Origin: a virus
Direction: 5' to 3' (one strand)
IMG/VR virus record: IMGVR_UViG_3300045988_113168
Length of the DNA stretch: 64,000 nt
Under the pieces are notes generated by a model. That model had not been told where the DNA came from. It ran no database searches and saw only the letters and a program-made list of their open reading frames with translations. Positions 24,047-63,611 of this stretch are shown in pieces (positions within the stretch are counted from its first letter, which is position 1; each line of letters starts with the position of its first letter). Both the position numbers and the translations under genes were made by a program.

Positions 24047-24068
24047 GTATCCTGTGATGTATAGCTAA
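24047..24068 (-). repeat. 22-nt motif copy I (minus sense TTAGCTATACATCACAGGATAC)
   Basis: 30 nt upstream of the RNAP-like gene start, just after a small hairpin + T-run. Confidence 0.8.
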
Positions 24069-24091
24069 AATGAAAATATAAAAGCAGGCTT

Positions 24092-24268
24092 TTACAGATA
24101 GCAGCTCTCACCATCTTCCATAGCCTTGAGCCAAAGCCGTTCACGCTCCTGATAGAGCTCATCCAGATAATCTTCAGCAGACTCATACTCCCGGCGGGTC
24201 AGACTTGCGTAGTTCATATCACGCACAAGCTGCTTGATTTCTGCATTAACATCCTCGTAAGTACGCAT
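24092..24268 (-). CDS. hypothetical protein
   Basis: 58-aa ORF (below track cut-off), ATGA overlap with upstream gene. Confidence 0.5.
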   Translation of the reverse strand: MRTYEDVNAEIKQLVRDMNYASLTRREYESAEDYLDELYQERERLWLKAMEDGESCYL

Positions 24269-24585
24269 CACTTATCAACCTCCGGTTCGTTCATATAATA
24301 ATATTTCTTTAACCACTCAATCCAACTAACCCATTTTCGGTATATCCGCTCTGCTAGTTCTCCCTCGACACAACTCCACTCACCAGTTTTCTTATTGTAG
24401 ATTTTACACAAATATGTGGCAGGGCCTTCCTTGGTAAACACTGGAACACCTTTTCGATAGCATGTCATGTAATCTTTATCTATCTGAATGTTTTCGGCGG
24501 AGTATTCCTTACCAATCATATTTGAGAGTTCTATGTTCAATAAGCGATACGCACGTTTACAAAGTTCTTCATCACTTAAATACAT
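24268..24585 (-). CDS. hypothetical protein
   Basis: 105 aa from ATG after GAGGTA; the longer track ORF overlaps the upstream gene. Confidence 0.55.
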   Translation of the reverse strand: MYLSDEELCKRAYRLLNIELSNMIGKEYSAENIQIDKDYMTCYRKGVPVFTKEGPATYLCKIYNKKTGEWSCVEGELAERIYRKWVSWIEWLKKYYYMNEPEVDK

Positions 24586-24595
24586 TGCTTTTACC

Positions 24596-24928
24596 TCAAC
24601 AATCTTGAACCATAACCGTTGGTTCATCCATAATAGCACCGCAAGCACCGCAGAACCGTGAGCAGTCAATTCCAGTAGAATCATGGCAACTGGAACACTC
24701 ACAATACAGTGATTCTCCAAAGTCAGCCTCATGCTCGATCCAGTGCGCGTGAACCACAGGTCTGACCTCGCCAACCTTCAATTCGTCCTGTACCATTTGC
24801 TTTGTCACACTAAGAGCTACCCAAACCACAACATCGCCTGTGGATTTGCCATTTCCACGCGGCGGAGTCTTTGCGAGTGCAGTATCAATATTTTTAATCA
24901 AATTAGTTGCGTTGATATATTTGTCCAT
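24596..24928 (-). CDS. hypothetical Cys-rich protein
   Basis: 110 aa, SD GGAGG; CECSSCH...CSRFCGAC. Confidence 0.6.
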   Translation of the reverse strand: MDKYINATNLIKNIDTALAKTPPRGNGKSTGDVVVWVALSVTKQMVQDELKVGEVRPVVHAHWIEHEADFGESLYCECSSCHDSTGIDCSRFCGACGAIMDEPTVMVQDC

Positions 24929-25207
24929 TTACTTAACCTCCTCGGCCACTTTCCTAATTGTCGCACCAATCTGTTCAAGCTCTGCCAGCAAGACATCCAC
25001 ATCCTCAGCATCACTCTCGGAAATATTCAAGTCCTTAATCTTATGTAATGCCCACTCAAGATTCGGATAATAGCCGACCGTAACTTCCTTTGTGCCAGTG
25101 CCTACCTCACCAGTCTTTGGATTCTTGCCAGCTGGTCTTTGCTCAATAATAATGAGATTTCGCTCATCGCAGTTCTTTATAATGTACTTGCCAATCTGAA
25201 TACGCAT
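24929..25207 (-). CDS. hypothetical protein
   Basis: 92 aa ORF with SD. Confidence 0.55.
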   Translation of the reverse strand: MRIQIGKYIIKNCDERNLIIIEQRPAGKNPKTGEVGTGTKEVTVGYYPNLEWALHKIKDLNISESDAEDVDVLLAELEQIGATIRKVAEEVK

Positions 25208-25210
25208 CAG

Positions 25211-26056
25211 TTAGATCTCCTTTACCTTACGGCTTGCCTCGGAACGGGGAAGAATACCCTCTTTCTTCAAACGCTTGTAAATATATGCCTTACCACGTTC
25301 AGTCCAACGCATGTGCTTACTAGATTTCTTTTTGCAGGTTTCCTTATCAAAGTAAGGAGTGGTCTCGTATTCAACAAAGCCCTCTCCGTCAAACTTACTG
25401 TAAAGATACCAGTGAGTGATCATCTTATCGCCACGTTTTGACTTGCAAAAATACTGGAGGCCGAGATCGTGAAGTTTCGTATTCATACGTGCTGCAGTCC
25501 AGCCATATTCCTTTGCAATATCAGTAACCGTATATGTGCTAGTAGACTGCAAAACCGCATCACAGTAGTCGGAACGAGGAGTCAAATATTCGTTTGTTTC
25601 CTTTAGCTGCTTATTTTTGCTAGAAAGGGCGGCGATACGCTTATCTCGTTCCGCAATCTTATTCTGCGCAACAATCAATGCAGCAGACAGAAGTTCGTCA
25701 TCAGTCATTTGCTCTTGACCAACAATGTAACCACCAGTCTTACGGACAGAAGGAATAATTTCATTAGCCACAAGTGCTTGGAACTTTTCTGCCACATCGT
25801 TTTTAGCCTTCATTGCCAGTCGATAAAAAATATTTTCAGGGATATAGCTTGGAAGATTTCCATCGACACTCGTGTCGATACCAAGATCGTGCAAATATTT
25901 ACGAACTCTCGTCCACTTTACACAAACATTTCCACTTGCGGCAACTTCTGTAAAACCAAGACCACGGGCAACATCTTCCAGTCGAAGATATGCAGTACCA
26001 TCTTGCTCATAGCAGGATACACCATACAAACTCACGATTTCAAAATTCTGACTCAT
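25211..26056 (-). CDS. antirepressor (Bro-N + KilA-C-like)
   Basis: 281 aa; N-terminal LRLEDVARGLGF ... IPENIFYRLAMKAKNDVAEKFQ..V..EIIPSVRKTGGY. Confidence 0.7.
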   Translation of the reverse strand: MSQNFEIVSLYGVSCYEQDGTAYLRLEDVARGLGFTEVAASGNVCVKWTRVRKYLHDLGIDTSVDGNLPSYIPENIFYRLAMKAKNDVAEKFQALVANEIIPSVRKTGGYIVGQEQMTDDELLSAALIVAQNKIAERDKRIAALSSKNKQLKETNEYLTPRSDYCDAVLQSTSTYTVTDIAKEYGWTAARMNTKLHDLGLQYFCKSKRGDKMITHWYLYSKFDGEGFVEYETTPYFDKETCKKKSSKHMRWTERGKAYIYKRLKKEGILPRSEASRKVKEI

Positions 26057-26116
26057 CAAATCTACTCCCTTTAATATGTATTTTATATTTCAAATAAGAG
26101 CCAAACAGACTCTTAT

Positions 26117-26383: not shown

Positions 26384-26388
26384 TATGT

Positions 26389-28644: not shown

Positions 28645-28918
28645 ATAACCTCCTACTCAATTTAGTTGGATTGACGAGTCTGTATTATATATATGTATGA
28701 AGATACATAGTCGTCAGTCCAAGTACAACTATCACAAAATATCTTTTAATGGTTTACTCGACTTGAAGCTATGGCGCGTAAGCGACATAGATTCAATTTG
28801 AGTAAACCTACGAGCGTCCGCAGACGCGAGATCCCTCTCTACGCCCTGTCCGGGAGGACTACTATAAATATCCATCGCAAACATCCACCACAGTCATTCC
28901 ATTACTAACTTCTTTGCG

Positions 28919-28940
28919 GTATCCTGTATTGTATAGCTAT
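28919..28940 (-). repeat. 22-nt motif copy A (points leftward)
   Basis: GTATCCTGTATTGTATAGCTAT; forms an imperfect inverted pair with copy B 36 nt away. Confidence 0.8.
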
Positions 28941-28976
28941 CTATACTCATTATACCATGAGATTGCCAAAAATTCA

Positions 28977-28998
28977 ATAGCTACATAATACAGGATAC
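28977..28998 (+). repeat. 22-nt motif copy B (points rightward)
   Basis: ATAGCTACATAATACAGGATAC. Confidence 0.8.
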
Positions 28999-29240
28999 GA
29001 ATGTTTCTAGCTTCTATTATAATAAGGTATGTTTCTTGGAGTGTCATCTACTGTAGTCTTTCCAGACAGTGACCGTCAGCTTACTTAGCTCAAGTCGCTA
29101 TTACACATTATTCTCCATGAAGAACATCTAGGTACTCTTGTGTGTTCTGTGTAAGCTGCCAGAGGCTACAATCATGCTCCTTGGAAGTCTCTGAAGTTTC
29201 TGAGAGTGCTGCTTAGATGCCAGATCAGTCCATTTATGGC

Positions 29241-29720
29241 GATAGGGGAGTACAGATAGGTACAAATAGGTATTTTATACTCCGAAGAATGGTCATTTTC
29301 GGTACATTTATGATACACATCGGGAAAACCCGCATAAATCCTAGACTTTTAAGCCTTTATTGGGTCAAAAAGGAACAAAAACATGGATAAAAAGGTACAA
29401 ATAAAAAGAAAAACTAGCCAAAATATAACGCAAATACGTTAAATTCTAGCTAATTACCGAATAAGCTACCGATTGAAAAATAGCGATTTTAAGCCATTTT
29501 TAGCTATTTTTAATGGAAAAGTGAATGATTTGTGGGTATATGTAGGAGATGGTATAGGGGTATATTTTGGGATGTTTTTGTCAGGGAGAAGTGTACCCCG
29601 GATAGGAGAGTAAAAGTGTCAAGGAATTATTTATTAACAGACTAGGAAGGTTAAAAAGTAGTAGTGTTGGTTGCCAATAGGAGAAGTATTGATGGAATTA
29701 TTGGAATTATTGGGAATTAA
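29241..29720. repeat. iteron-like short repeats in A-rich non-coding DNA
   Basis: RATAGG(R) words at about 29242, 29256, 29267, 29553, 29601 and 29677; AGGTACAAATA twice (29258, 29393); tandem GGAATTATT x3 at 29694-29720. Confidence 0.5.
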
Positions 29721-30138
29721 AGATAAAATAATATGTAAAATATTGCGATAAATCGTTATTAAATTGTTATTTCTTGAGGATGAATAAGAAAGATGTACTG
29801 GGGTTTCGGCCTGCTGCCGGGAACGTCCAAAAAATGAAAAGTATGCCCCATAGGTGCGAGTGCTGGAAATGCTCAAAATACGGCACTCGACAGGGCAAGG
29901 ACAAGGCGGGATTTTTGTCTGTATTGCTATCTGATAAAGTATCAACAGGTGCAGATAATGGTTAAAGAATTTTAATTGCTTGATAACGAACAAAAATGTT
30001 CGATACAAAACAAAATGTTATGTTGATTTAAAATCAACTTTAAATTATATATTGTTTCTTTTCAATCAACCATCAATTTTCCCTTATAAGGTAATTATAA
30101 TATAAAGCAAAAATCCATTTGTTGCACACGCAACATTT

Positions 30139-30180
30139 ACGGTGAAACCGCTTGACTTTCTACGGTGAAACCGTTATACT
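30139..30180 (+). promoter_or_regulatory. sigma70-type promoter P1 with two palindromic operators
   Basis: TTGACT(30152)-17 nt-TATACT(30175); ACGGTGAAACCG(T) at 30139 and 30162 (CGGT-N3-ACCG palindrome). Confidence 0.65.
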
Positions 30181-30262
30181 ACAGTCAAGCTCAAGGGCAA
30201 CACCGAAAAGCGGAAAACATGATGGTTCTGAAACACCGGAAAATTTCAGTTTCCACTTTTTG

Positions 30263-30325
30263 ACGTTTCACCGTTTGAGCGGTTCAAAAATAGGGCTTGA
30301 CAAAACGGTTAAACCGTGATACAAT
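30263..30325 (+). promoter_or_regulatory. sigma70-type promoter P2 with operators
   Basis: TTGACA(30297)-17 nt-TACAAT(30320); ACGGTTAAACCGT in the spacer, ACGTTTCACCGT at 30263. Confidence 0.65.
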
Positions 30326-30733
30326 ACAGTCAAGCTCAAGGGCGAAAGCCCAAAAGCAAAACCCAAAACCCAATAGCACATTGACAAGTCAAGATTTCTG
30401 ATTTTAACTTGTTTGGTTTAACTCTTGTTTAATTACAAGAAAAATCATGCAACAAAAGTCAAGATTAGAAGTCTACCATATCGGCAAAACTTTCGGGTTT
30501 TGTTGGTACGGTGCGACAAGTCACAATTTGCACCTTGAAAAACACGTTAAAGTAGAACGTTGTGAAACGCCGAAATTCCGTCAAATTGGCAAACAAGATG
30601 TTTTAGACGCAAGTCTTTCACTGGTCCCTAGGTAGACTATACCTAAGAGGATCAGCAAGGATGGTCAACAGTATGCACCTTGTATCAAAAGCGTACTGTA
30701 CCAGAACACTAAACAGAAAAGAGGTGTATTCAA

Positions 30734-30919
30734 GTGTTCAAAGAAAAGCTCAAAGCCGTTCTTTTTGTAGCTCTTTTTACTATTGGTTTCATTCTCATTA
30801 CCGCTGGTATGCTGGTTAGCTTTTGCGGATTGGCATACATGGGATATGCGGTTGTCTTAACCGTCTACGGCGGTTGTTCACTTCTTGCAACAGCTCTTGT
30901 TGAGGACATTCTCAAGTAA
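30734..30919 (+). CDS. small membrane protein
   Basis: 61 aa, GTG start after AGAGGTG, two hydrophobic helices. Confidence 0.5.
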   Translation: MFKEKLKAVLFVALFTIGFILITAGMLVSFCGLAYMGYAVVLTVYGGCSLLATALVEDILK

Positions 30920-34202: not shown

Positions 34203-34231
34203 TTGACAAAATTATCGGTATCCTGTATTAT
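34203..34231 (+). promoter_or_regulatory. consensus sigma70 promoter overlapping reversed motif copy C
   Basis: TTGACA-17 nt-TATTAT; the spacer and -10 are part of GTATCCTGTATTATGTAGCTAA (34218-34239). Confidence 0.65.
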
Positions 34232-34239
34232 GTAGCTAA
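34218..34239 (-). repeat. 22-nt motif copy C (reverse orientation)
   Basis: GTATCCTGTATTATGTAGCTAA; inverted partner of copy D 38 nt away. Confidence 0.8.
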
Positions 34240-34246: not shown

Positions 34247-34271
34247 AGTCCGTTAGAGGACTTTTATTTTT
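34247..34271 (+). terminator. small terminator-like hairpin between motif copies C and D
   Basis: AGTCC-gttaga-GGACT followed by TTTTATTTTT. Confidence 0.5.
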
Positions 34272-34277
34272 ACCGTT

Positions 34278-34298
34278 CAGCTATATAACACAGGATAC
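34278..34298 (+). repeat. 22-nt motif copy D
   Basis: CAGCTATATAACACAGGATAC, 17 nt before the start of gene 34316. Confidence 0.8.
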
Positions 34299-46834: not shown

Positions 46835-46935
46835 AAAGCCGGTATTGACATTCAGTGATGTTGTAAAACTTGCAAATGCTGAAGGATTGTCTTACGGAAA
46901 ATATTGCTTAAAGTATGGAATTTGAGGTGAATATA

Positions 46936-47754
46936 ATGAGTGCAGCTGTTGAAAGAAAAGAAGAACAGATATCTAAATTGATTTATTTTAATCCGAAGCC
47001 TTCTGTTCCGGCTAAAAAACGTGGTGCTACAAAAAGTAAGCAGAAGCGTAAGCGTAATATTTCTCCAATTAGAAGCTTGGATGATGTTCAAATGATTTCA
47101 GAATACTTCTGGGATAAAAAGCAATATCGCAATTGGTGTCTATTTAATGTCGGTATTGCAACTGGGTTGCGTGCTAGTGACTTGCTTAAATTGAAAGTTT
47201 CTGATATGTCTTACTGTCTTTATAATGGAAAAATTGAGGTGGTTGAAGACGCTGGAGTATGCATCGTTGAAGAAAAAACATCCAAGTATCGCGAAATTAT
47301 TCTTACTCCAGAAGCGAGGGACATTGTTGAAACATACATCAAGATTGTGAATCTTGGATATGATGATTGGATGTTTCCGTCTCGACAAGGGAGTTGGAAA
47401 AAGTCGTTGAGGACAAATGGTGGAGATGGGAAAACTGGTATTCCTCATATTGCAGAACCTAAAAAGGCCGGTGATCCTATTGATGTTGATTCTTTTGCTC
47501 GTATTCTTCGTAATGCTGGTAAGGATTTAGGTCTTAATTATAAGATTGCTTCTCACTCTTGCCGTAAGACGTTTGGTTATCGTGAAATGTGCCTTAACAA
47601 GGATGACAATCAGGCACTGTCTTGGATTCAGAGTCAGTTGAATCATAGTAGCCAGGATATTACATTACGGTACGTTGGTTTTGATGAGGATAAGACAAAA
47701 GAATATTATAAGAAGACTTTTTATGGTGTGAATACACACAGCTTGGAAGACTGA
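46936..47754 (+). CDS. tyrosine recombinase (second integrase-family gene)
   Basis: 272 aa; ATGLRASDLL, HSCRKTFGY, LNHSSQDITLRYVG. Confidence 0.8.
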   Translation: MSAAVERKEEQISKLIYFNPKPSVPAKKRGATKSKQKRKRNISPIRSLDDVQMISEYFWDKKQYRNWCLFNVGIATGLRASDLLKLKVSDMSYCLYNGKIEVVEDAGVCIVEEKTSKYREIILTPEARDIVETYIKIVNLGYDDWMFPSRQGSWKKSLRTNGGDGKTGIPHIAEPKKAGDPIDVDSFARILRNAGKDLGLNYKIASHSCRKTFGYREMCLNKDDNQALSWIQSQLNHSSQDITLRYVGFDEDKTKEYYKKTFYGVNTHSLED

Positions 47755-54425: not shown

Positions 54426-54454
54426 TTGACTTCTGCAAAGGTATCCTGTATAAT
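54426..54454 (+). promoter_or_regulatory. consensus sigma70 promoter overlapping reversed motif copy E
   Basis: TTGACT-17 nt-TATAAT; drives the MazF-like gene. Confidence 0.7.
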
Positions 54455-54462
54455 ATAGCTAT
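54441..54462 (-). repeat. 22-nt motif copy E (reverse orientation)
   Basis: GTATCCTGTATAATATAGCTAT; inverted partner is copy F, 1.47 kb away. Confidence 0.8.
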
Positions 54463-54497: not shown

Positions 54498-54917
54498 ATG
54501 GACAACAATATTGACCCGAAGGTCGGAGAGGTTTGGTTGGTTGATCTATCTAATGCGACGGGCCATCAGCAGCGCGGTATTCGACCGTTTGTTGTGACAA
54601 GCAACAACAAGCGCAACTTCTTCAGTCCCACAATCAAAGGGAATCCGTTGTCTTCCAGAATATACAAGCGTTCTCCGGTTCATGTCCTGCTCTCAAAGGA
54701 AGATTGCGATTTTCTGGAAGTTGACAGTATCGTTCTCTGCGAAGAGACTGATACGCTTAACAAAGGGCAGTTCATCAAAAAGCTTGGTGTCTTGTCTGAG
54801 CGTCATATGAATATGATCGCAATGGCCAGATGCAAGGATGAACCGTTTTTGCTCGCAGCATTCCTAAGCGGCGTACAACATACTATGGAATTTCAGAATT
54901 TTGCCGCATTTGCTTGA
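54498..54917 (+). CDS. mazF: MazF/EndoA (PemK)-family endoribonuclease toxin
   Basis: 139 aa; GEVWLVDLSNATGHQQRGIRPFVV.SNN..N.FSPT ... DSIVLCEETDTLNKGQFIKKLG.LSERHM aligns with B. subtilis EndoA as I recall it. Confidence 0.75.
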   Translation: MDNNIDPKVGEVWLVDLSNATGHQQRGIRPFVVTSNNKRNFFSPTIKGNPLSSRIYKRSPVHVLLSKEDCDFLEVDSIVLCEETDTLNKGQFIKKLGVLSERHMNMIAMARCKDEPFLLAAFLSGVQHTMEFQNFAAFA

Positions 54918-54970: not shown

Positions 54971-55897
54971 ATGCTTACTGAAGAAAAGATCAACGCTTTT
55001 GCTGAAAAGTATTCTGATAGAAGCGGCGAGTTTGTTATATCGACACTTAACCATGTTATGGACTACGAAGCGGAGTGCGGGTATGAGCTATTCGACTTCA
55101 TAAAAGATGACTTTGTAAAGATGTTTGCCAAATACAATTGGGTAAACTCAAGTCGTTCGTTTAAAAATGTGAAGTCGATAATCACTGGCTACATCAAGAG
55201 CGAAAATCGTACAAGCGTGTATGATTTGGCTGAATTTTCAGAGAGTGATGTGAGCTCAGACAATATGTACGAGGACAAGTATTTTGCATCGGTTGATGAG
55301 TTTGTTGACTTCTTAAACAAGTATGAAGAAGCGTATCAGGTTCGTATGAATGTGATTGCTGTTTTGTACTGGATTGGGCTCACCTCTGAGGAAGTTTCTA
55401 ATCTAACAATTAACGATGTGGATTTTGAATCTCGTACTGTTCTTGACAAGACTGATGTTGATGGAAGGCTGATGGATATCATTAAACAGTGTTATGAGAT
55501 GAAACAATATGATGCGCCCAATATGGGAGGATACAGAACATTTTATGTCATAAACGGTGATTACATCCTTCGCAAAACAGAGGATAGAACTGGTGCAGAC
55601 AGTGATTCAAGAATGTCTACAAACACAATTCATAGTTATTTCACGCGCTTGAATGATATTCTCGAAAGAAGATATCATTCAAAGGCTTTAGACCGAAGAC
55701 ATCTGACCAGAAACGGCGAGTATGTCAAGGTTTATAACTACTGTAAAACTCATCCAGAATTTAATCTTGCAGAACTTAGTTTCGGAAATGGTAAAGATCC
55801 TCTTGCGGACATTATCGGAAGAAAGTGCAGCAAGGTTGCCTACATTAGTTTCCGGCAAGGATACAAGGGCTGGATCGAATACTTCCACAAAAATTAA
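54971..55897 (+). CDS. tyrosine-recombinase-like protein with degenerate active site
   Basis: 308 aa; box I-like VLYWIGLTSEEVSNLTINDVDF (Thr where the catalytic Arg is expected) and RRHLTRNG (HxxR-like). Confidence 0.4.
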   Translation: MLTEEKINAFAEKYSDRSGEFVISTLNHVMDYEAECGYELFDFIKDDFVKMFAKYNWVNSSRSFKNVKSIITGYIKSENRTSVYDLAEFSESDVSSDNMYEDKYFASVDEFVDFLNKYEEAYQVRMNVIAVLYWIGLTSEEVSNLTINDVDFESRTVLDKTDVDGRLMDIIKQCYEMKQYDAPNMGGYRTFYVINGDYILRKTEDRTGADSDSRMSTNTIHSYFTRLNDILERRYHSKALDRRHLTRNGEYVKVYNYCKTHPEFNLAELSFGNGKDPLADIIGRKCSKVAYISFRQGYKGWIEYFHKN

Positions 55898-55901: not shown

Positions 55902-55927
55902 AGGGGGCTTCGGCCCCTTGATTTTAA
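55902..55927 (+). terminator. rho-independent terminator
   Basis: GGGGC-UUCG-GCCCC followed by TTGATTTT. Confidence 0.7.
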
Positions 55928-55932
55928 CACGG

Positions 55933-55953
55933 TAACTATATAACACAGGATAC
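55933..55953 (+). repeat. 22-nt motif copy F
   Basis: TAACTATATAACACAGGATAC, upstream of the RNA-repair gene. Confidence 0.8.
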
Positions 55954-56031: not shown

Positions 56032-58242
56032 ATGAGAACTTTGCTTCTTTTCCGTGGAGCACCAGGATGCGGGAAGTCCACCTATATTAAAGAGCATGAT
56101 CTGGAAAAGTATACGCTTAGTGCCGATACGATTCGCCTTATGTGTCAGGGTGGTCAGGAAACCCCGGCTGGCACAATGGAAATCTCTCCCCAGAACGATG
56201 ATGTTGTCTGGGATATGCTCTTTAAACTGTTGGAGGTTCGGATGTCTCACGGTGAATTTACCGTGATTGATGCAACGAACTCTAAAACTGTCGAAATCAA
56301 TCGCTATAAGAATCTTGCCAAGCAGTACAGGTACAGAATGTACATCATCGACATGACTGATTTGCCCATTAGTGAGTGTAAACGGCGTAATTCGCTTCGC
56401 ACTCTTCTGAAGAGAGTCCCGGATGCTGCCATTGATAAGATGTATGCACGATTCGCAACGCAGAAGATTCCGTCTGGTGTGACTGTACTCTCGTCAGATG
56501 TAAATATCCTTGAGAAATTGAACTATGTTCCGCAGGACTTTAACAACTGGAGCAAAATTCATATCATCGGTGATGTGCATGGGTGTTACAGTTGCTTGAA
56601 AGAGTATCTTGGCGACCTGAAGGATGATGAACTGTACATTTTTGTTGGCGATTATCTGGATCGTGGAATTGAAAATGTAGAGATGTTCAAGTTCCTTTGT
56701 GATGTTGTAGACAATAATCGGAAGAATGTGATCCTTTTGGAAGGAAATCACGAGCGTTGGCTGAACAAGTGGGGGCATGATGAACCGGTTCAGAGTGAAG
56801 AATTTGCAAACTACACTCGTCCGCAGCTCTTTAAAGCCGGTATTGACAAGAACACTGCTCGTAAGATCTATTCCAGAGTCGGCCAATGTGCCTACTTTGA
56901 GTATGATGGGAAACGGTATTTTGTGAGCCACGGTGGTTTGAGTTATCTGCCTTATTTTCTTCCTTTTGTATCTGCTGATCAGATGATTAAAGGCGTAGGT
57001 CGCTATCCTGATATGCTAACCGTGGCTGAGTCTTGGGAAAAATCGATGCCGGATAGCTGCATTCAGATCTTCGGTCATCGAAATGTGCAGGATGTTCCCA
57101 TTGATATGGGGCATCGGTGCTACAACCTCGAAGGAAAAATCGAGTTTGGTGGATATCTCCGTTGCGTGGAACTTGAACACGGTCAGTCAATCAAATGTGT
57201 AGAAACCAAGAACGATGTGTTCCGAAAAGAGGAGCCAAAGACTGAAACTGCCGTTGAAATGAAAACTGAGTTCGATAACGCAGAACTTGTTAGTAAGATG
57301 CGCAAAAGCAAATATGTGTTTGAGAAGCGATTCGGAGATATTTCTTCTTTCAACTTCTCTCGTGAAGCATTTTACAAGAAGCACTGGGATGAGGTTTCTA
57401 CCAAAGCAAGGGGATTGTTCATTAACACAAAGACGAATAAGATTGTAGCTCGAAGCTATGATAAGTTCTTTGCGGTTGATGAGCGGAATGAAACGAGAAT
57501 TGGAAACCTACAGAACACTTTGAAGTTCCCGGTGACTGCATATCTAAAAGAGAATGGATTTCTCGGTATCATTTCGTATGATGCAGAACAGGATGGTCTG
57601 TTCATTGCAAGTAAATCTACTCCTGAAGGGCCTTTTGCAGATATGTTCCGAAAGATTTTCATGGATACGACTTCTGATGAAGACCGTAAGAATCTAAAGG
57701 AAGTTGCAAAAGAGAATGGTTCCATCATTTTTGAGGTAATTGATCCTGTAAATGATGCTCATATCATCGAATACAAGACACCACATATTGTTTTGCTGGA
57801 TATTATTGCGAATGATATGAACTTCAGTGTGATGGATTACGATGATCTGAAGCGTGTTGCTGAAAAGTGTCATTTGCAGATTAAGGAGAAGGTTAAGATC
57901 TTTGAGAGCTGGAGTGAATTCTATCCTTGGTATGAAGAAGTCATGAATGAGAATTATCTGTACCATGGCATCGAGCATATTGAAGGTTTTGTTTTGAGAG
58001 ATAACAACAATTTTATGTTTAAGCTGAAGCTTCCTTATTATAAGCACTGGAAGTTCTTGCGTGGTGTTATGCAGAGCGTACAGAAGCGTGGCTATTACGA
58101 AAACACTGCCAAGCTGTTTACTGCTGAAGATAATTTATTCTATGGTTGGATGCGTGAACAACGAGAGAAAGAAAAAGAGTCTTTCTGCAAGAAGGGTATT
58201 ATTCAGTTACGGAATGAATTCTATGAGAATCGGCACGAATAA
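56032..58242 (+). CDS. trifunctional RNA-repair enzyme: polynucleotide kinase + metallophosphatase + ligase-like adenylyltransferase (Pnkp-like)
   Basis: 736 aa; P-loop GAPGCGKST, phosphoesterase motifs GDVHGC / GDYLDRG / GNHE, and a C-terminal KENG (KxNG nucleotidyltransferase motif I). Same domain order as Clostridium thermocellum Pnkp. Confidence 0.7.
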   Translation: MRTLLLFRGAPGCGKSTYIKEHDLEKYTLSADTIRLMCQGGQETPAGTMEISPQNDDVVWDMLFKLLEVRMSHGEFTVIDATNSKTVEINRYKNLAKQYRYRMYIIDMTDLPISECKRRNSLRTLLKRVPDAAIDKMYARFATQKIPSGVTVLSSDVNILEKLNYVPQDFNNWSKIHIIGDVHGCYSCLKEYLGDLKDDELYIFVGDYLDRGIENVEMFKFLCDVVDNNRKNVILLEGNHERWLNKWGHDEPVQSEEFANYTRPQLFKAGIDKNTARKIYSRVGQCAYFEYDGKRYFVSHGGLSYLPYFLPFVSADQMIKGVGRYPDMLTVAESWEKSMPDSCIQIFGHRNVQDVPIDMGHRCYNLEGKIEFGGYLRCVELEHGQSIKCVETKNDVFRKEEPKTETAVEMKTEFDNAELVSKMRKSKYVFEKRFGDISSFNFSREAFYKKHWDEVSTKARGLFINTKTNKIVARSYDKFFAVDERNETRIGNLQNTLKFPVTAYLKENGFLGIISYDAEQDGLFIASKSTPEGPFADMFRKIFMDTTSDEDRKNLKEVAKENGSIIFEVIDPVNDAHIIEYKTPHIVLLDIIANDMNFSVMDYDDLKRVAEKCHLQIKEKVKIFESWSEFYPWYEEVMNENYLYHGIEHIEGFVLRDNNNFMFKLKLPYYKHWKFLRGVMQSVQKRGYYENTAKLFTAEDNLFYGWMREQREKEKESFCKKGIIQLRNEFYENRHE

Positions 58243-58308: not shown

Positions 58309-58387
58309 GGCCCTATGGCGGAACGAGGCATACGCAACAAGCTCAAACCTTGTAAAATTCTCAGTTCAAATCTGAGTAGGGCTACCA
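58309..58387 (+). tRNA. tRNA with anticodon CAA but class I (short variable arm) architecture, CCA encoded
   Basis: GGCCCUA acceptor, loop CUCAAAC, T-arm CUCAG-UUCAAAU-CUGAG, A73. Confidence 0.5.
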
Positions 58388-58466
58388 ACCCATTTGCAGA
58401 TGGGTAAGTGCTAGAATATTGGCAAATCGGAAAGACGGTTGACTGCTGGACAGACAGCTTTGATAT

Positions 58467-58551
58467 GTCACTATGGCGAAATTGGCGAGACGCATCGGAC
58501 TTAAGTTCCGACGGTAGCGATACCATCTGGGTTCGACTCCCAGTAGTGACA
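58467..58551 (+). tRNA. tRNA-Leu (UAA), class II
   Basis: GUCACUA/UAGUGAC acceptor, loop CUUAAGU, long variable arm, T-loop UUCGACU. Confidence 0.75.
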
Positions 58552-58558
58552 CTGATAT

Positions 58559-58634
58559 CCGGGTGTAGCTCAGTTGGAAGAGCGCGTGCTTTGGGAGCAT
58601 GAGGCCGCAGGATCGTGACCTGTCACTCGGACCA
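58559..58634 (+). tRNA. tRNA-Pro (UGG), CCA encoded
   Basis: loop UUUGGGA; T-loop AUCGUGA (A54/U58). Confidence 0.7.
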
Positions 58635-58666
58635 GCCCGAAAGGGCATGTAGAATTTTTCATTCAC

Positions 58667-58722
58667 ATTATTCCCAGCTCTCTGGAAACAGAGCAGTGTG
58701 GCGTAGCAAGCTGGGTAGATTA
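58667..58722 (+). repeat. 56-nt structured tRNA leader element, copy 1
   Basis: ATTATTCCCAGCTC..; 7-bp stem CCCAGCT/AGCTGGG enclosing CTCTG-GAAA-CAGAG; abuts tRNA-Gln. Confidence 0.7.
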
Positions 58723-58794
58723 CGAGGATTAGCCAAGCGGATAAGGCAGTGGAATTTGACTCCACGACCGCAGGTTCGATTCCTGTATCCTCGA
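58723..58794 (+). tRNA. tRNA-Gln (UUG)
   Basis: CGAGGAU/AUCCUCG acceptor, loop AUUUGAC, T-loop UUCGAUU. Confidence 0.7.
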
Positions 58795-58801
58795 TTTATA
58801 T

Positions 58802-58886
58802 GCGGGTATGGTGTAACTGGCAGCCACGCGGATTTTAGGTGTCCGTGCCGAAAGGCGTGAGGGATCGTGCCCCTCTACCCGTACCA
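58802..58886 (+). tRNA. tRNA-Leu (UAG), class II, CCA encoded
   Basis: loop UUUAGGU, variable arm UGCCGAAAGGCGU, T-loop AUCGUGC. Confidence 0.7.
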
Positions 58887-58933
58887 CGGTCATAGAATGG
58901 TTGCGTACCGTTTGTTGATCTCCTTTGACCACT

Positions 58934-58989
58934 ATTATTCCCAGCTCGCTCGTAAGAGTGCAGTAGTGCTTTGTAAGCTGAGTGATTGT
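58934..58989 (+). repeat. 56-nt structured tRNA leader element, copy 2
   Basis: ATTATTCCCAGCTCGCTCGTAAGAGTGCAGTAGTG..TAAGCTGAGTGATTGT; same architecture (GNRA hairpin CTC-GTAA-GAG). Confidence 0.7.
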
Positions 58990-59061
58990 GCAGTTATGGT
59001 GTAGTTGGTAAGCACGCTTGCTGATGAAGTAAGAGGATGAGTTCAAAACTCATTGACTGCA
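58990..59061 (+). ncRNA. tRNA-like gene with aberrant anticodon loop
   Basis: good acceptor, D and T arms (AUGAG-UUCAAAA-CUCAU), but the loop is UGAUGAA (G33) and the variable region is 3 nt; anticodon not assignable by eye. Confidence 0.4.
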
Positions 59062-59065
59062 AAAT

Positions 59066-59258
59066 ATGAAATCAGTTGTTCTAGCTCGTTCGTGGATTGG
59101 CCGTACATTGGCGACCGGAAAGACGTCATACCGGTAAAGGACGTCAAGCCAGACAAGAAGAGAAATAAGGTGTAAGCCGACTAGCTATCGGATAAATACT
59201 CTTCGGTTCGCCAGAAAACTAGAATGTAAAACGAATGGTTGGCTGTTTCTGATTTCAT
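59066..59258 (+). ncRNA. unclassified ~193-nt structured RNA inside the tRNA array
   Basis: closed by a 10-bp stem ATGAAATCAG/CTGATTTCAT, then TTCTAG/CTAGAA. Internal GGCGACCGGA/TCTTCGG(T)TCGCC, GACGTC/GACGTC and CCGA/TCGG helices. No ORF. Confidence 0.45.
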
Positions 59259-59264
59259 TTATAT

Positions 59265-59340
59265 GCGACTGTAGTTCAATTGGCAGAGCGTCAGATTTCC
59301 AATCTGAATGTTGCGGGATCGTGCCCCGTCAGTCGCTCCA
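59265..59340 (+). tRNA. tRNA-Gly (UCC), CCA encoded
   Basis: GCGACUG/CAGUCGC acceptor, loop UUUCCAA, T-loop AUCGUGC. Confidence 0.7.
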
Positions 59341-59471
59341 CACGCAGCCCCTTACGCTGCACCGGTTGCTCAGAGCCGAAAGAAACCTATATGTTACGAC
59401 ATGGTTGCCAAGAGTGATCATATTGGAACGCGACGTAGCTTGGATAGTGAGAATTAAATTCTGAGGTATAC

Positions 59472-59540
59472 TGCTGGATAGCTTAATGGTAAAAGCGCTC
59501 GGAAACGCCGAGAGATAAGGTTCGATTCCTTCACTGGCAT
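59472..59540 (+). ncRNA. 69-nt tRNA-like RNA with 5-nt anticodon-position loop
   Basis: D-arm GCUU-AAUGGUAA-AAGC and T-loop UUCGAUU are present, but the anticodon arm is CUCGG-AAACG-CCGAG. Confidence 0.35.
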
Positions 59541-59567
59541 CACGCCGATGAAAGTCGGCGTTTGCAT

Positions 59568-59644
59568 GGGATAGTAGCTCAGTTGGTCAGAGCTGGCGGC
59601 TCATAACCGCTTGGTCGCGAGTTCAAATCTTGCCTGTCCCACCA
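59568..59644 (+). tRNA. tRNA-Met (CAU) (elongator or Ile2-type), CCA encoded
   Basis: GGGAUAG acceptor, loop CUCAUAA, T-loop UUCAAAU. Confidence 0.7.
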
Positions 59645-59746: not shown

Positions 59747-59768
59747 TTAGCTATATAATACAGGATAC
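59747..59768 (+). repeat. 22-nt motif copy G
   Basis: TTAGCTATATAATACAGGATAC, 17 nt before the methyltransferase-like gene. Confidence 0.8.
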
Positions 59769-59785
59769 AAAAAGGAGGAGTTGTA

Positions 59786-60478
59786 ATCTTACGAGTTCTA
59801 ATTGCCTGTGAAGAATCACAGGAAGTTTGTAAAGCATTTCGATTGCTTGGTCATGAAGCGTATTCTTGCGATATTCAACCTCCGTCCGGTGGTTGCCCAG
59901 AGTGGCATATTTTGGGTGACGCACTGGCAGCTCTACAGGGTGGGCAGATAGTCACAATGGATGGCACACAACACTATGTTGAGCAGTGGGATCTATTGAT
60001 TGCACATCCTCCGTGTACATATTTATCAAACGCTGGCGCACGATGGTTATGGGCTGGACACAAATTGAATCAAGAACGGTATCAACGAGGATTGGAAGCT
60101 AAGGAGTTTTTTATGGCGTTTTATAACGCACCGATCAAACACATTTGTGTTGAGAATCCAATTCCGAGTGCTGTTTATGAAATGCCAAAACCATCGCAGA
60201 TGATTCAGCCATATGAATTTTATGGTAAGGACCATCCATGGACAAAGAAGACCTGTTTATGGCTGAAAGGTCTTCCTAATCTGGCTCCGGTTGAAGCGGT
60301 TGAACCGAAGGGTCCGTATTGTCCGTGTGGAACTTCCGCTAATAAAGGTAATGTAAGAAATCGTGGCGCAGCTAAACGTGGTGAGGATGCAAAGAATAGG
60401 GCTAAGACCTTCCATGGGATTGCTCGTGCTTTTGCAGAACAGTTCTCAGAGTACATTGAAAATGAAGGAGATGAGTAA
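59786..60478 (+). CDS. C5-cytosine-methyltransferase-like protein (PPC / ENP motifs, atypical N-terminus)
   Basis: LLIAHPPCTYLS (motif IV-like) and ICVENPIPS (motif VI-like). The conserved-looking N-terminus LRVLIACEESQEVCKAF lies upstream of the first canonical start. AAAGGAGGAG is 7 nt before an in-frame ATC at 59786. Confidence 0.55.
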   Translation: MLRVLIACEESQEVCKAFRLLGHEAYSCDIQPPSGGCPEWHILGDALAALQGGQIVTMDGTQHYVEQWDLLIAHPPCTYLSNAGARWLWAGHKLNQERYQRGLEAKEFFMAFYNAPIKHICVENPIPSAVYEMPKPSQMIQPYEFYGKDHPWTKKTCLWLKGLPNLAPVEAVEPKGPYCPCGTSANKGNVRNRGAAKRGEDAKNRAKTFHGIARAFAEQFSEYIENEGDE

Positions 60479-61620: not shown

Positions 61621-61827
61621 ATGAACAGCAAAATTTCTATCAATGCAACCATCGACCCCGGTTCTTTGAGTATTCCGGCAAGTCCTATCTTCCAACAGGA
61701 AAAGAATACATATTTTTGTCCGTTTTGTGTGACGAAGCTGTAGAAGTTCGAGCGTGAATGTTCTGATTGTCATCGCAAGATGGATTGGAGTAGGTTCACT
61801 GAAAAGAAGGAGGAGGTGTTCACTTGA
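61621..61827 (+). CDS. zinc-ribbon protein with in-frame TAG (codon 41, 61741-61743)
   Basis: reading through the TAG completes a CPFC-x10-CSDC zinc ribbon. The extended frame ends in a TGA that overlaps the TTG start of the next gene (TTGA) behind AAGGAGGAGG. Confidence 0.65.
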
Positions 61828-62102
61828 ATATAGATTTCTTCCGACGGCGCAAGACTCAGCTTGAAGATACGCTTCTTTTGAAAAATCAGGCCGTCGATAT
61901 GCTTGATTATCTAAAGACGCACTGCATCAACAATGACCAGTATTGTGTAATTCGGGATTATATTGAAGAAGCTGCGAAGATTCTGGAGAGCGATCTCGAA
62001 TATGCAAATAACAAACTGCAGTCTGCATTTAGACCTAAGCATGGTCGGAACAACAGATTGACTCGTGCTCAATCTAAGATGTTCCGTGATAGGGAATATT
62101 AA
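61824..62102 (+). CDS. hypothetical protein
   Basis: 92 aa, TTG start after GAAGGAGGAGG. Confidence 0.55.
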   Translation: MNIDFFRRRKTQLEDTLLLKNQAVDMLDYLKTHCINNDQYCVIRDYIEEAAKILESDLEYANNKLQSAFRPKHGRNNRLTRAQSKMFRDREY

Positions 62103-62118
62103 AATGGGGTGATGCCGT

Positions 62119-62331
62119 ATGAACACATGTAAGAAAATATGTAACTGGTGTGGTCGTGAAATCAAGCCGATAGGCAGCGAGCAGGGAATCAGTTTTGAAC
62201 ATCAATACTCTTACGGTAGCCAACTTGATGGTTCGCTTTTGAGTTTTGATCTGTGTCCTGAATGTTCAGAACGGCTCCCGGTAGTGCTCGGCGCGATGTT
62301 TTTACATAATCCCTTAAAGGACGATTTCTAA
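62119..62331 (+). CDS. hypothetical zinc-ribbon protein
   Basis: 70 aa; CNWCGRE ... CPEC. Confidence 0.55.
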   Translation: MNTCKKICNWCGREIKPIGSEQGISFEHQYSYGSQLDGSLLSFDLCPECSERLPVVLGAMFLHNPLKDDF

Positions 62332-62476
62332 CGGTAAAAGCCGTATGAAATATAAGCCATCAATAAGCCAGACGGAGGATAATACATAGAATGAATAGTG
62401 CATGAATTGATTTAAGACAGCATAAAGAAACATAAGTGATTGTTAATGAAACAAAATTACATAAAGGAGACTTGAT

Positions 62477-63580
62477 ATGGCAGATAGAATTTTTAATCTT
62501 CCTCAGACCCGTGGCTCTTTTGAGATGGCTGGTAAGGTCACCGGCACTCAGCGTAGCAACTTCTATAATGAGAAGGAGACAAAGAGTGGTGCTATGCGCC
62601 GTGTCTTGAGCTTTGGCGTTCAGACCTCTAACGAGAACACTTTCTATATTGATCTGGCTGGTATGCCTCGTGACAAGGTTTACTTCTTCCGACGTGCCGA
62701 TAAGGACAAGGGCATTGAGAAGGACAAGAAGGAAGTCGCTTGGAAGGATCGCATGACCTATGTTGCACCGGAAGGCTATGACATGATTGGCGTTAAGGTC
62801 GGTGTTACCAAGAAGACGAATGAGTCCGGCAAGGTTGTCAACGATAACAAGACTCTGACTGACTTCGATGCAGCTAAAGAGATTTCTGAGAACCTGCATG
62901 ACGGCGATAATGTGTATGTCCGTGGTAACATTGAGTACAGCACTTACAATGGTAAGCACCAGATTCGTTTTGTTCCTACTCAGGTGTCGCTGAGTTCTAA
63001 GGAAATCGACTTCGATGCAGAGGGTTTTGAGGAACTGGCTCTGTTCACTCAGACCATTGTGTACACTGGTTGCCGCAAGAGCGATGAGGGTGATGAAGTA
63101 GTTGTCGATGCGAAGATCGTAAACTATAACACCATCGAGGATGCAGAGTTCTTCATTGATTATAAGGCAAACGCTCAGAATAAGGTCCTGGCTGATTCTA
63201 TTCGTAAGCGTCTGAAGCCTTATACTAGCTTCGAGTGTTTTGGTCCCATCGTTAATCAGCAGAAGGTTGAGGAAGTTGAGACCGAGAATATCTGGGGTGG
63301 TCCCAACAAGATGAAGCGCCAGAGCACTCCGGCGGTTCGCAAGCTGTATATCGAGGGTGTTAATCCTGATTCCTTTGATCCGAATCCCGGCGAGAAGGAT
63401 GCAGAGCCTACTTACACCGAGGACAATATCTCTGAGGCACGTGCAAAGATTGCCGCTAATGCTCAGGCCAAGAAGGATTTTGACGGCAAGGCTGCTGAGA
63501 ACGACACTTCTTGGTGGGGTGGTTCTAACAAGTCTACTGTAACTCCTGTAGACGAGGAAGAGGATGACTGGGGAGTGTAA
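62477..63580 (+). CDS. putative ssDNA-binding protein
   Basis: 367 aa, SD AAAGGAGA; acidic C-terminal tip EEEDDWGV; next to a recombination ATPase. Confidence 0.45.
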   Translation: MADRIFNLPQTRGSFEMAGKVTGTQRSNFYNEKETKSGAMRRVLSFGVQTSNENTFYIDLAGMPRDKVYFFRRADKDKGIEKDKKEVAWKDRMTYVAPEGYDMIGVKVGVTKKTNESGKVVNDNKTLTDFDAAKEISENLHDGDNVYVRGNIEYSTYNGKHQIRFVPTQVSLSSKEIDFDAEGFEELALFTQTIVYTGCRKSDEGDEVVVDAKIVNYNTIEDAEFFIDYKANAQNKVLADSIRKRLKPYTSFECFGPIVNQQKVEEVETENIWGGPNKMKRQSTPAVRKLYIEGVNPDSFDPNPGEKDAEPTYTEDNISEARAKIAANAQAKKDFDGKAAENDTSWWGGSNKSTVTPVDEEEDDWGV

Positions 63581-63589
63581 TTTTTAGTC

Positions 63590-63611
63590 TTAGCTAAGTA
63601 ACACAGGATAC
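63590..63611 (+). repeat. 22-nt motif copy H
   Basis: TTAGCTAAGTAACACAGGATAC. Confidence 0.8.

Follow-up and report, generated by a model that had tools for sequence, protein, structure and literature searches.

The 64,000-nt window analysed here, which is half of a viral genome, comes from a distant SPbeta-like phage and holds nine copies of a motif of 21 to 22 nt that controls transcription as a DNA element where transcription units begin. In our preferred reading, to which we give about an even chance, these copies are operator boxes for a putative master repressor, a 308-aa protein resembling SroF and MrpR. The copies and the features around them are listed below.

20500-21255, minus strand: gene of a 251-aa protein; its first codons overlap the 3' end of the polymerase gene
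21233-24016, minus strand: gene of a YonO-family single-chain RNA polymerase, 927 aa, the rival candidate for recognising the motif
24047-24068, minus strand: copy I, 30 nt 5' of the polymerase ATG
28919-28940, minus strand: copy A, spanning about +2 to +23 of P(A)
28949-28977, minus strand: P(A), a sigma-A-type promoter (TTGAAT, 17 nt, TGgTATAAT)
28977-28998, plus strand: copy B, divergent partner of A
34203-34231, plus strand: P(C), a sigma-A-type promoter (TTGACA, 17 nt, TATTAT)
34218-34239, minus strand: copy C (class 1), reversed inside P(C)
34247-34272, plus strand: hairpin with T-tract, between C and D
34277-34298, plus strand: copy D (class 2), after the hairpin and 17 nt 5' of the ATG at 34316
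54426-54454, plus strand: P(E), a sigma-A-type promoter (TTGACT, 17 nt, TATAAT)
54441-54462, minus strand: copy E (class 1), reversed inside P(E), overlapping the promoter of the operon of the 308-aa repressor-like protein
54498-54917, plus strand: PemK/MazF-like toxin gene (PF02452, E = 3.8e-19), first gene of the P(E) operon
54971-55897, plus strand: gene of the SroF/MrpR-like integrase-fold protein, 308 aa, the candidate motif binder
55902-55918, plus strand: intrinsic terminator, GGGGCTTCGGCCCC plus TTGATTTT, its end 6 nt 5' of copy F
55932-55953, plus strand: copy F (class 2), 78 nt 5' of a kinase-phosphatase-RNA ligase gene and tRNA array
59747-59768, plus strand: copy G (class 2), after the tRNA array and a hairpin; a Shine-Dalgarno sequence begins 4 nt on
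63590-63611, plus strand: copy H (class 2), 9 nt past the upstream stop and 36 nt 5' of the next ATG

All nine copies that a preliminary description had reported in the 64-kb window were recovered on the same strands with at most two mismatches to the consensus, and only the 5' ends of D and F are offset by 1 base from the earlier coordinates. Chance predicts no such match, with none in 100 dinucleotide-preserving shuffles, and the core ACAGGATAC is present exactly nine times in the window (0.3 expected), each time within a motif copy. A family PWM trained on 444 motif instances scores all nine copies at 30.6 or more and the rest of the window at no more than 8 bits, so the window holds no weak copies. 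The late arm (1-24000) is devoid of the motif in both the consensus and the PWM scans. The motif itself is a contiguous, asymmetric and sharp-edged stretch of 21 nt, TAGCTA followed by YAYAAY and ACAGGATAC, with an AT-rich centre that reads TATAAT in the consensus, conservation that reaches the 3' edge, and no internal pairing potential apart from the TAGCTA palindrome.

This anatomy is established, as is its conservation across the family. The preliminary description had proposed a motif search in related phages, and the positions are conserved in more than 200 related viral contigs of 120 to 140 kb; 63 of the 64 unique sequences of the family keep copy I in place. Seven of the nine point in the sense direction, and the two that face the wrong way, C and E, each overlap a near-consensus sigma-A promoter of the opposite strand. 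Read in reverse complement, copy C makes up the spacer and -10 box of P(C). All 49 unique family sequences of P(C) have TTGACA as the -35 box, all 43 of P(E) have TTGACT, and a third reversed-in-promoter class, found in relatives and not in the window, has TTGACA or TTGACT in the same register in all six unique sequences. C, E and this third class are classical operator-in-promoter arrangements. P(E) serves the MazF-like toxin gene and the repressor-like gene.

Copies A and B, already placed at a divergent control region, form a divergent pair distant from every ORF start. P(A) lies within the 36 nt that separate them and reads into A, its -35 box abutting B, and this bracket leaves no space for a further operator. 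Beyond copy A come a 274-nt leader and a 389-aa gene, while copy B faces about 2 kb of apparently non-coding DNA. No minus-strand terminator was found on the way from P(A) to the polymerase gene. A constant 36 to 37 nt separates the copies of the inverted pairs A/B and C/D, and also those of a third pair in relatives. The preliminary description had included neither the 308-aa repressor-like gene, nor the overlap of P(C) and P(E) with copies C and E, nor P(A).

These constant pairs bear on whether the motif could act in RNA, as a 5' leader, processing site or translation signal. A leader or processing signal had been thought as possible as any other role, and seven of the nine copies are indeed sense and near ribosome-binding sites. 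This reading is now extremely improbable because of the inverted pairs with their constant spacing and the three site classes reversed inside host-type promoters; class-1 copies are antisense to the local transcripts and mostly upstream of the transcript start, and there is no internal pairing beyond the palindrome.

Site classes without a host-type promoter are I, D, F, G and H in the window plus four others that occur in relatives. The class-2 layout is a terminator, 0 to 17 nt, the motif, 13 to 36 nt and a start codon, with the Shine-Dalgarno sequence of promoter-less sites beginning 3 to 10 nt past the motif. Within the window, F, G and D have a terminator-like hairpin on their 5' side, copy I comes about 40 nt after the upstream stop codon, and a start codon follows 17 to 78 nt beyond I, D, F and H. 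The earlier observations that copies stand close before a ribosome-binding site or start, often after a terminator, and that sense copies have no -35 box are thus borne out. The class-2 hexamer is TATAAC in the majority. A C occupies position 13 in 26% of all motif instances and in the greater part of class-2 sites, which places a C at -7 in the sense reading or a G at -11 in the reverse reading. The central hexamer of copy H, AGTAAC, cannot serve as a -10 box. With TATAAC or AGTAAC hexamers and no -35 box, class-2 sites are not sigma-A promoters in either orientation.

Could the motif instead be the core of a host-polymerase promoter, with TATAAY as the -10 and an alternative or phage sigma factor or an activator reading the flanks? 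The consensus centre TATAAT suits this, a sigma factor is annotated in the related phage PMBT24, and copy I in most family members has TACAAT with a weak TTTATA 17 nt upstream. However, the frequent C at -7, the G at position 9 (-11) of H-type sites and the lack of both a -35 box and a TG extension make it quite unlikely. Moreover, no sigma-like gene was recognised among the approximately 46 ORFs of this half-genome window that were scanned (Pfam; ten also by PHROGs), and the PMBT24 sigma factor has no tBLASTN match in 3.4 Mb of family loci, which cover half of the genome.

In relatives, the cassettes downstream of class-2 sites vary from phage to phage while terminator and motif are retained, and mosaic junctions coincide exactly with the motif. 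A recombination or cassette-exchange site for one of the two tyrosine-recombinase-fold proteins, one of which is a Phage_integrase-family protein encoded at 46915-47754, would account for cassettes that differ right 3' of the motif. We consider this very unlikely, since homologous recombination at any conserved regulatory sequence yields the same mosaic, the motif lacks the layout of an inverted repeat around a short spacer, the cassettes are not consistently flanked by copies on both sides, and the 308-aa protein lacks the catalytic Arg.

More serious is the possibility that the motif is the promoter of the phage-encoded polymerase, alone or with the co-translated 251-aa protein. The 927-aa protein belongs to the Pfam RdRP/YonO family with 25% identity to SPbeta YonO, which confirms that a copy precedes a polymerase gene. 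The 251-aa protein combines winged-helix-like domains with a zinc ribbon (CxxC...CxxC), and its gene adjoins the polymerase gene in every relative examined. In relatives, the YonK, YonJ, YonG, YonD and YonV Pfam families surround the YonO-like polymerase, which marks the window as part of a distant SPbeta-like phage. Under this explanation, host RNA polymerase would fire the sigma-A promoters first and read-through from P(A), along which no terminator intervenes, would supply the phage polymerase. Initiation inside ACAGGATAC would follow at A, I, B, D, F, G and H, and the reversed C and E would let early promoters, including that of the repressor operon, be occupied, counter-transcribed and shut off. 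A repressor could recognise the same sequence as well.

This promoter explanation survives because most sites follow a terminator, lie 13 to 36 nt 5' of a start codon and are not sigma-A promoters, even though they stand where a promoter is needed. The retention of terminator and motif before differing cassettes fits, as does the Shine-Dalgarno sequence 4 nt past G-type sites, which would put any start point inside the motif. Like T7-, T3- and SP6-type promoters, the motif is contiguous, asymmetric, about 22 bp long and without a -35 box; it heads transcription units, often directly after terminators, is conserved up to the presumed start and accompanies a phage-encoded polymerase. The window enzyme is a two-barrel YonO/RdRP-family protein unrelated to T7 RNA polymerase, however, and unlike T7-type promoters, the motif has no copies in the late region and faces against the genes in three site classes. 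No promoter has been defined for any YonO-type enzyme (PMC5467207). With the YonO-dependent late promoter of SPbeta (PYONO) the window shares a homologous polymerase, and copy I heads the polymerase gene and late genes, but the one YonO start site of SPbeta, of undefined promoter sequence, is late and lies 3' of yonO and yonN rather than at many early-arm sites (PMC5467207). The primer-extension amplicon of SPbeta (L206 3205-3447) gave no convincing motif match. The gap beyond the polymerase and 251-aa genes, the syntenic counterpart of the YonO promoter region in SPbeta, contains conserved elements of its own that are unrelated to the motif, and the 24-kb late arm beyond copy I has zero copies. 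Relatives whose polymerases are 38-67% identical lack the motif, and no replacement multi-copy motif was found in the complete PMBT24 genome. All promoter-like features of the distribution recur, furthermore, for the experimentally validated SroF box of phi3T. We rank the polymerase promoter second, as a live if less probable alternative.

The operator reading begins with the protein encoded at 54971-55897, which is a member of the SroF/MrpR family and predicted to be catalytically dead. Its Pfam MrpR_N_CB score is 18.3 bits (18-21 bits in this protein and P0123), rising to 27.7 bits (E = 4.4e-6) in the 78%-identical homologue P0186. Its best Foldseek match is 9rd5, Phi3T SroF bound to DNA (E = 4.5e-4), followed by 9rgl, 8bpz (YopR) and 8a0a (MrpR), all of which outrank true recombinases. 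In alignment, the box-I catalytic Arg is replaced by Thr (GLTSEE versus GLRISE of Tn1549 Int). Two results weigh against the operator reading: the predicted structure is poor in its C-terminal domain (mean pLDDT 63, TM about 0.28), and a sequence profile of the protein did not recover MrpR from the PDB. The presence of this repressor-like protein and its fold family are established. Some of its homologues sit on contigs of 375-784 kb, as would suit an integrated prophage in need of a repressor.

In SPbeta and phi3T, SroF/MrpR binds as a monomer to an asymmetric box of 24-26 bp, of which it reads 24 of 26 bp, that is AT-rich in its centre and present in many copies across the phage (bioRxiv 10.1101/2025.11.27.690993; PMC10516654). 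Scanning phi3T, we obtained 35 hits to the box core, each in the orientation of the local genes; they are spread over the early arm, and none lies in the 53-kb late arm. Many are 8-70 nt 5' of start codons and several directly follow terminator hairpins, one being 24 nt 5' of the yonO start and another ahead of the sro operon. The parallel is likewise established: the window motif is long, asymmetric, AT-centred and multi-copy, is restricted to the early arm and divergent control region, often lies just 5' of ribosome-binding sites after terminators, and has one copy directly 5' of the polymerase gene and another at the repressor operon. The phages also share a lineage, with SPbeta-like late genes, a YonO-type polymerase and a repressor (here a candidate) of integrase fold without catalytic residues. 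The differences are as clear. The motif is shorter (21-22 bp) and has no sequence similarity to the SPBRE/phi3T box (TAGCTA-YAYAAY-ACAGGATAC versus AGAATAAAAATAAAAT...), it forms divergent pairs 36-37 nt apart, most copies lack a neighbouring host-type promoter, and the repressor-like gene comes after a MazF-like toxin gene, unlike the sroA-E context. The host, unlike that of the Bacillus phages, is a gut clostridial bacterium (two homologues carry a Faecalibacterium or Oscillospiraceae name).

An asymmetric repressor box of 24-26 bp, with a homologue of its reader encoded in the window, takes the force out of the argument from length and asymmetry for a T7-type promoter. Control at operon starts, as first proposed, stands; the preference for such a promoter is neither shown nor refuted and now comes behind the repressor box, and a regulator-binding site, formerly one of several equal options, is ranked first. 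Further observations count against the operator reading. Most site classes offer no host-type promoter to repress; there the model requires a hypothetical roadblock function, and lytic expression would have to depend on read-through of terminators. No motif copy accompanies the strong host-type consensus promoters at 30297, 32644 and 54011, and the copies embedded in promoters run opposite to the rest, while the phi3T boxes are all co-oriented.

By analogy with SroF, we infer that one 308-aa monomer would clamp each asymmetric 21-22 bp box. At C and E, where strong host-type promoters have their spacer and -10 within the box, bound repressor would bring shut-off, and at E the toxin-repressor operon would be auto-regulated. 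A and B would flank the host-type promoter from which transcription would run through an antirepressor-like gene and on to the polymerase gene. Where the box lies just past a terminator or stop codon and directly 5' of the next ribosome-binding site (I, D, F, G and H), the bound clamp may act as a roadblock that in a lysogen blocks or terminates read-through out of upstream operons. The polymerase, tRNA-repair and replication modules would thus be kept silent until an antirepressor removes the repressor.

The 22-nt motif TTAGCTATATAAYACAGGATAC is found nine times in the window, each time with 0 to 2 mismatches, at the positions and on the strands first proposed for it:

24047-24068 (-), copy I
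28919-28940 (-), copy A
28977-28998 (+), copy B
34218-34239 (-), copy C
34278-34298 (+), copy D
54441-54462 (-), copy E
55933-55953 (+), copy F
59747-59768 (+), copy G
63590-63611 (+), copy H

No match to the motif was obtained in 100 shuffles, and the 9-mer ACAGGATAC, expected 0.3 times, has nine occurrences in the window, all within the motif. With a weight matrix built from family instances, the nine sites score 30.6 to 39 bits, and weaker copies are lacking, as the rest of the 64 kb stays at or below 8 bits. The copies are confined to 24047-63611, with copy I before the gene of the 927-aa polymerase and copy E at the operon of a repressor-like 308-aa protein; the window scan gave none in the structural-gene arm (1-24000) and none in 34300-54400. 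Relatives of this polymerase are encoded on at least 218 IMG/VR contigs, most of them 120-140 kb long. In the best 80 of these, the polymerases are 83-95% identical and the motif lies in the same places. The motif is real, strongly non-random, and conserved. A logo of 281 unique family instances having the exact core has information only at positions 2-22, with both edges sharp, and depicts an asymmetric, non-palindromic element with an AT-rich center. T2-A-G-C-T-A7 is almost invariant, positions 8-13 (Y-A-Y-A-A-Y) are moderately conserved and are followed by ACAGGATAC, and 71% of instances have T at position 13, against 26% with C. The core varies among orthologous sites by sporadic single changes only.

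Clustering 444 unique family instances on the sequence downstream of the motif gives two kinds of site. Class 1 consists of copies C and E and a third class outside the window, where a host-type promoter has the reverse complement of the motif as its spacer and -10 box. A TTGACA or TTGACT lies exactly 9 nt past GGATAC in every unique sequence (49/49, 43/43, and 6/6), and all instances have T at position 13 and A at position 9. These three types are oriented against the genes and overlap host-type promoters, two of which are in the window:

34203-34231, P(C), TTGACA-17-TATTAT, class 1 promoter overlapping copy C
54426-54454, P(E), TTGACT-17-TATAAT, class 1 promoter overlapping copy E

Copy D is 40 nt downstream of P(C). 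Copies A and B are a divergent pair whose intervening 36 nt hold a sigma-A promoter, TTGAAT-17-TGgTATAAT, reading into A; a spacing of 36-37 nt is also seen in C/D and in a third pair in relatives. Class 2 includes I, the D-, F-, G-, and H-types, and three further classes, and is arranged as a terminator or stop codon, 0-17 nt, the motif, 13-36 nt, and a start codon, with the exception of the window's F variant (78 nt from motif to start codon). The gene cassettes downstream vary among phages, while terminator and motif are retained. Mosaic junctions fall at the motif, which is the one hint of a recombination site, but such junctions are expected at any conserved regulatory sequence.

The motif was compared with a sigma-A promoter, defined as a -35 of TTGACA and a -10 of TATAAT with A at -11 and T at -7, 16-18 nt apart. 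In sense orientation it has no -35 box and carries C at position 13 in four of the nine window copies; only C and E, read in reverse, agree with the definition. Host-type promoters are overlapped or abutted by A, B, C, E, and one further family class, and not by I, F, G, or H. Class 2 sites have no -35 box and mostly C at position 13 (TATAAC is the majority hexamer, and H has AGTAAC), and hence cannot be sigma-A promoters in either orientation. Recognition by the host polymerase with another sigma factor or an activator is also disfavored, as C would occupy -7, no sigma-like gene was found among ~46 ORFs of the window, about half of the genome (searched with Pfam, ten also with PHROGs), and tBLASTN of the sigma factor of the related phage PMBT24 against the family loci returned nothing. 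A signal acting in RNA is likewise disfavored by the inverted pairs and by the class 1 copies, which are reversed and largely untranscribed. A second operator common to motif-free strong sigma-A promoters was sought, and the candidate TTTTGATAAAACA was set aside as modestly enriched (19 matches versus 6.3 expected). Two tandem near-consensus promoters, 145 nt apart, were observed at 30138-30354 (+), inside the apparently non-coding stretch 28645-30900 into which copy B is directed:

30152 (+), sigma-A promoter, TTGACT-17-TATACT
30297 (+), sigma-A promoter, TTGACA-17-TACAAT

Both are followed by an identical ACAGTCAAGCTCAAGGGC. Small RNAs may be made from them, or this stretch may serve as an origin or in regulation. 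Downstream of copy G, the ORF at 59768-59850 (+) (ILRVLIACEESQEV...) has a strong GGAGGAG Shine-Dalgarno but lacks an ATG, GTG, or TTG where one would be expected; the ATC codon located 5 nt past the Shine-Dalgarno suggests a non-canonical start.

Genes of the window run leftward to ~28.6 kb and rightward from ~31 kb. The 927-aa ORF (21233-24016 (-)) matches the Pfam RdRP family PF05183 (E = 5.7e-14), and its phage relatives are YonO-type polymerases: those of Clostridium phage c-st and Enterocloster phages at 38% identity, and of SPbeta and phi3T at ~25%. In metagenomic relatives with polymerases 49-67% identical, members of the YonK, YonJ, YonG, YonD, and YonV families adjoin the polymerase gene, which makes the window a distant SPbeta-like phage. 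Faecalibacterium or Oscillospiraceae names are attached to two homologues. A megablast search with 8.5 kb around the polymerase gene found no match among GenBank phages, and a motif scan of reference genomes gave, among the matches listed, single chance matches only.

A regulator-binding site had been put forward from the start as an alternative to a promoter, and it has now gained a candidate binder in a SroF/MrpR-like gene that had been overlooked. This gene, ORF 54971-55897 (308 aa), comes second in the P(E) operon, after a PemK/MazF-like toxin gene (54498-54917 (+)). The Pfam MrpR_N_CB domain scores weakly in this protein (18.3 bits) and reaches 27.7 bits in its 78%-identical homologue P0186, against a curated cut-off of 27; most database homologues have a precomputed PF22823 match. 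With an AlphaFold model that is confident in the N-terminal domain only (mean pLDDT 63), the best Foldseek matches in the PDB are 9rd5 (Phi3T SroF bound to DNA), 9rgl (the SroF-Sar complex), YopR, and MrpR (best E 4.5e-4), with Tn1549 Int, Cre, and Xer ranking below. MrpR was reached by this fold search alone, and not by a sequence profile of the 308-aa family run against the PDB. At the sole catalytic residue compared, the box-I Arg is replaced (IGLTSEEV, versus TGLRISEL in Tn1549 Int). The protein is 75-99% identical among recovered homologues, some of which are on contigs of 375-784 kb, a size that points to integrated prophages. Two Bro-N domain proteins are also encoded, at 25211-26059 (-) and 44748-46052 (+). 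The former also carries a KilAC/ANT antirepressor domain; its gene belongs to the operon of P(A) (the sigma-A type promoter beside copy A), where it is located between copy A and the polymerase gene, and the protein is a candidate for an antirepressor acting on the SroF-like protein.

The system to which this protein can be compared has been characterized in Bacillus phages. In SPbeta, MrpR (also YopR or SroF) binds a 15-bp element, SPBRE, at about ten early promoters, including those of yonP, just upstream of yonO, and of yopM, in the repressor operon (PMC10516654). The first gene of that operon is yopM, which works via the host MazE-MazF pair (PMC10516654); in the window it is the PemK/MazF-like toxin gene. 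SroF of phi3T is a monomer that encircles a 26-bp asymmetric box with central A-tracts and reads 24 of the 26 bp, and SroF is not interchangeable between phages (bioRxiv 10.1101/2025.11.27.690993). Scanning the whole phi3T genome (KY030782.1, loci L387/L388) for the sense-oriented core of the crystallized box with up to 2 mismatches gave 35 matches, every one co-oriented with the local genes and none in the 53-kb late arm (none below 53.8 kb). Many lie 8-70 nt before start codons and several directly after terminator hairpins; yonO has one 24 nt ahead of its TTG start, and another precedes the sro operon. About one-third of these SroF-box-like sequences are 8-24 nt before start codons, some of them at 8-14 nt, where no promoter fits between box and gene, a class for which no discussion was found in the literature on SroF/MrpR boxes. 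In Goe11, another SPbeta-like phage, a repeated element lies in or beside the -10 box of the yonP promoter. The distribution of phi3T boxes is the same pattern that had been described for the window motif.

By analogy with this system, the chances that the motif is a repressor operator box can be put at about even, and it is best filed as a box of the SroF/MrpR type, found here in an SPbeta-like phage of gut Clostridia and in two geometries not reported before. An operator would directly explain the class 1 sites and the bracketing of a promoter by A and B. It would also account for a copy being present at the repressor operon and another ahead of the polymerase gene, for the confinement to the early arm, and for the size and asymmetry of the element. 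The last two features had suggested a T7-type promoter, yet they fit this repressor equally well, the SroF box being itself long and asymmetric. Support for an operator comes, by analogy, from a homologous system that is experimentally characterized. Its weak point is class 2. Here, a bound repressor could act as a roadblock or enhance termination. The geometry makes such a role plausible, since in four of five terminator types 0-6 nt separate the end of the T-tract from the motif; lytic expression of these units would then need read-through.

Alternatively, the motif could provide the first consensus for promoters of a YonO-family (two-barrel, single-chain) polymerase, TAGCTA-TATAAY-ACAGGATAC with the start inside the last block, a proposal we regard as less probable than a repressor box, though a serious possibility. 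It may be read jointly with the co-translated 251-aa winged-helix and zinc-ribbon protein encoded next to the polymerase. Reversed copies over host-type early promoters, including that of the repressor operon, would provide a built-in early-to-late switch that silences them, and the integrase-fold repressor may have evolved to recognize the same sequence. The phage does encode a dedicated RNA polymerase, and class 2 is explained naturally, as a conserved contiguous motif heads units that have no host promoter. A coherent program can also be drawn in which read-through from P(A) makes the polymerase, as no minus-strand terminator intervenes. However, such a promoter is without precedent, the YonO of SPbeta having a single late start site and an undefined promoter (PMC5467207). 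The late arm is left without internal copies, the class 1 copies are opposed to their genes, and no co-varying motif was found in diverged relatives. For instance, the motif is absent where the relative's polymerase is 67%, 59%, 49%, or 38% identical (including loci L199-L203), and no multi-copy replacement was found in PMBT24 or in 22-kb loci of relatives. Repeats in the complete PMBT24 genome are Shine-Dalgarno-like or sigma-A-like, apart from a 19-mer beside terminators. A divergent pair in L199, TATATAATACATTATAAG, was considered as an analogous motif and rejected, as a scan of the viral collection gave just scattered single matches. In relatives with a diverged polymerase, the repressor too would be expected to diverge. 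The SPbeta start site is given as a genome coordinate (PMC5467207); the primer-extension primers bracket 3205-3447 of locus L206, where no convincing similarity to the motif was seen. Repressor box and polymerase promoter are not exclusive, and the minor alternatives (another host promoter, an RNA signal, a recombination site) share what probability these two leave.

The polymerase neighborhood has further features of its own. The start of the 251-aa ORF (20500-21255 (-)) lies 23 nt ahead of the polymerase stop codon, and the ORF adjoins the polymerase gene in all relatives examined (L199-L203, PMBT24). Its AlphaFold model is confident (pLDDT 89), with winged-helix-like domains and a C-terminal CxxC-N13-CxxC zinc ribbon; fold matches, to Fur, Rep, and ORC winged helices, are weak (E >= 0.05). 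The protein could be a DNA-binding partner or an initiation factor for the YonO-type polymerase. The gap between its gene and the first late gene (20350-20500 (-)) contains a family-conserved palindrome, AACGTAnnTACGTT, overlapping a TATAAT, and a strong hairpin terminator (GGTAGGGAGA...TCTTCCTACC plus TATTTTATTTT) with the Shine-Dalgarno of the next gene directly after it. It is syntenic with the SPbeta region holding the YonO start site and, taken with the terminator, this suggests that the late genes require terminator read-through. Elsewhere, ORFs 7181-8347 and 8756-9580 are separated by a group I intron (8417-8759 (-), Rfam RF00028, 75 bits), which probably splits a structural gene. One of the 12 phage tRNAs (16724-16799 (-)) has the anticodon CTA, which would read TAG stops. 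Stops in plausible genes are TAA (64), TGA (49), and TAG (6), all six of the last in short doubtful ORFs, and recoding of TAG was dismissed, with no clear in-frame TAG in long genes. A 736-aa fusion of polynucleotide kinase (AAA_33), metallophosphatase, and T4-type RNA ligase 1 (56032-58242 (+)) has an eight-tRNA array directly downstream (58309-59644 (+)); together they look like a tRNA-repair module against host anticodon nucleases.

Should the motif be a polymerase promoter, it would answer what a YonO-type polymerase recognizes, a question open since 2017, and provide an orthogonal polymerase-promoter pair for Firmicutes. If it is a repressor box, SroF/MrpR lysogeny control, a recently described mode in which a monomeric integrase-fold clamp binds a long, asymmetric, multi-copy box, would no longer be limited to the Bacillus SPbeta phages but would take in an abundant family of phages, 120-140 kb in size, that infect human-gut Clostridia. 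Two unreported geometries would be added: boxes reversed within host-type promoters, and boxes directly after terminators, the latter suggesting repressor-dependent termination or roadblocking.
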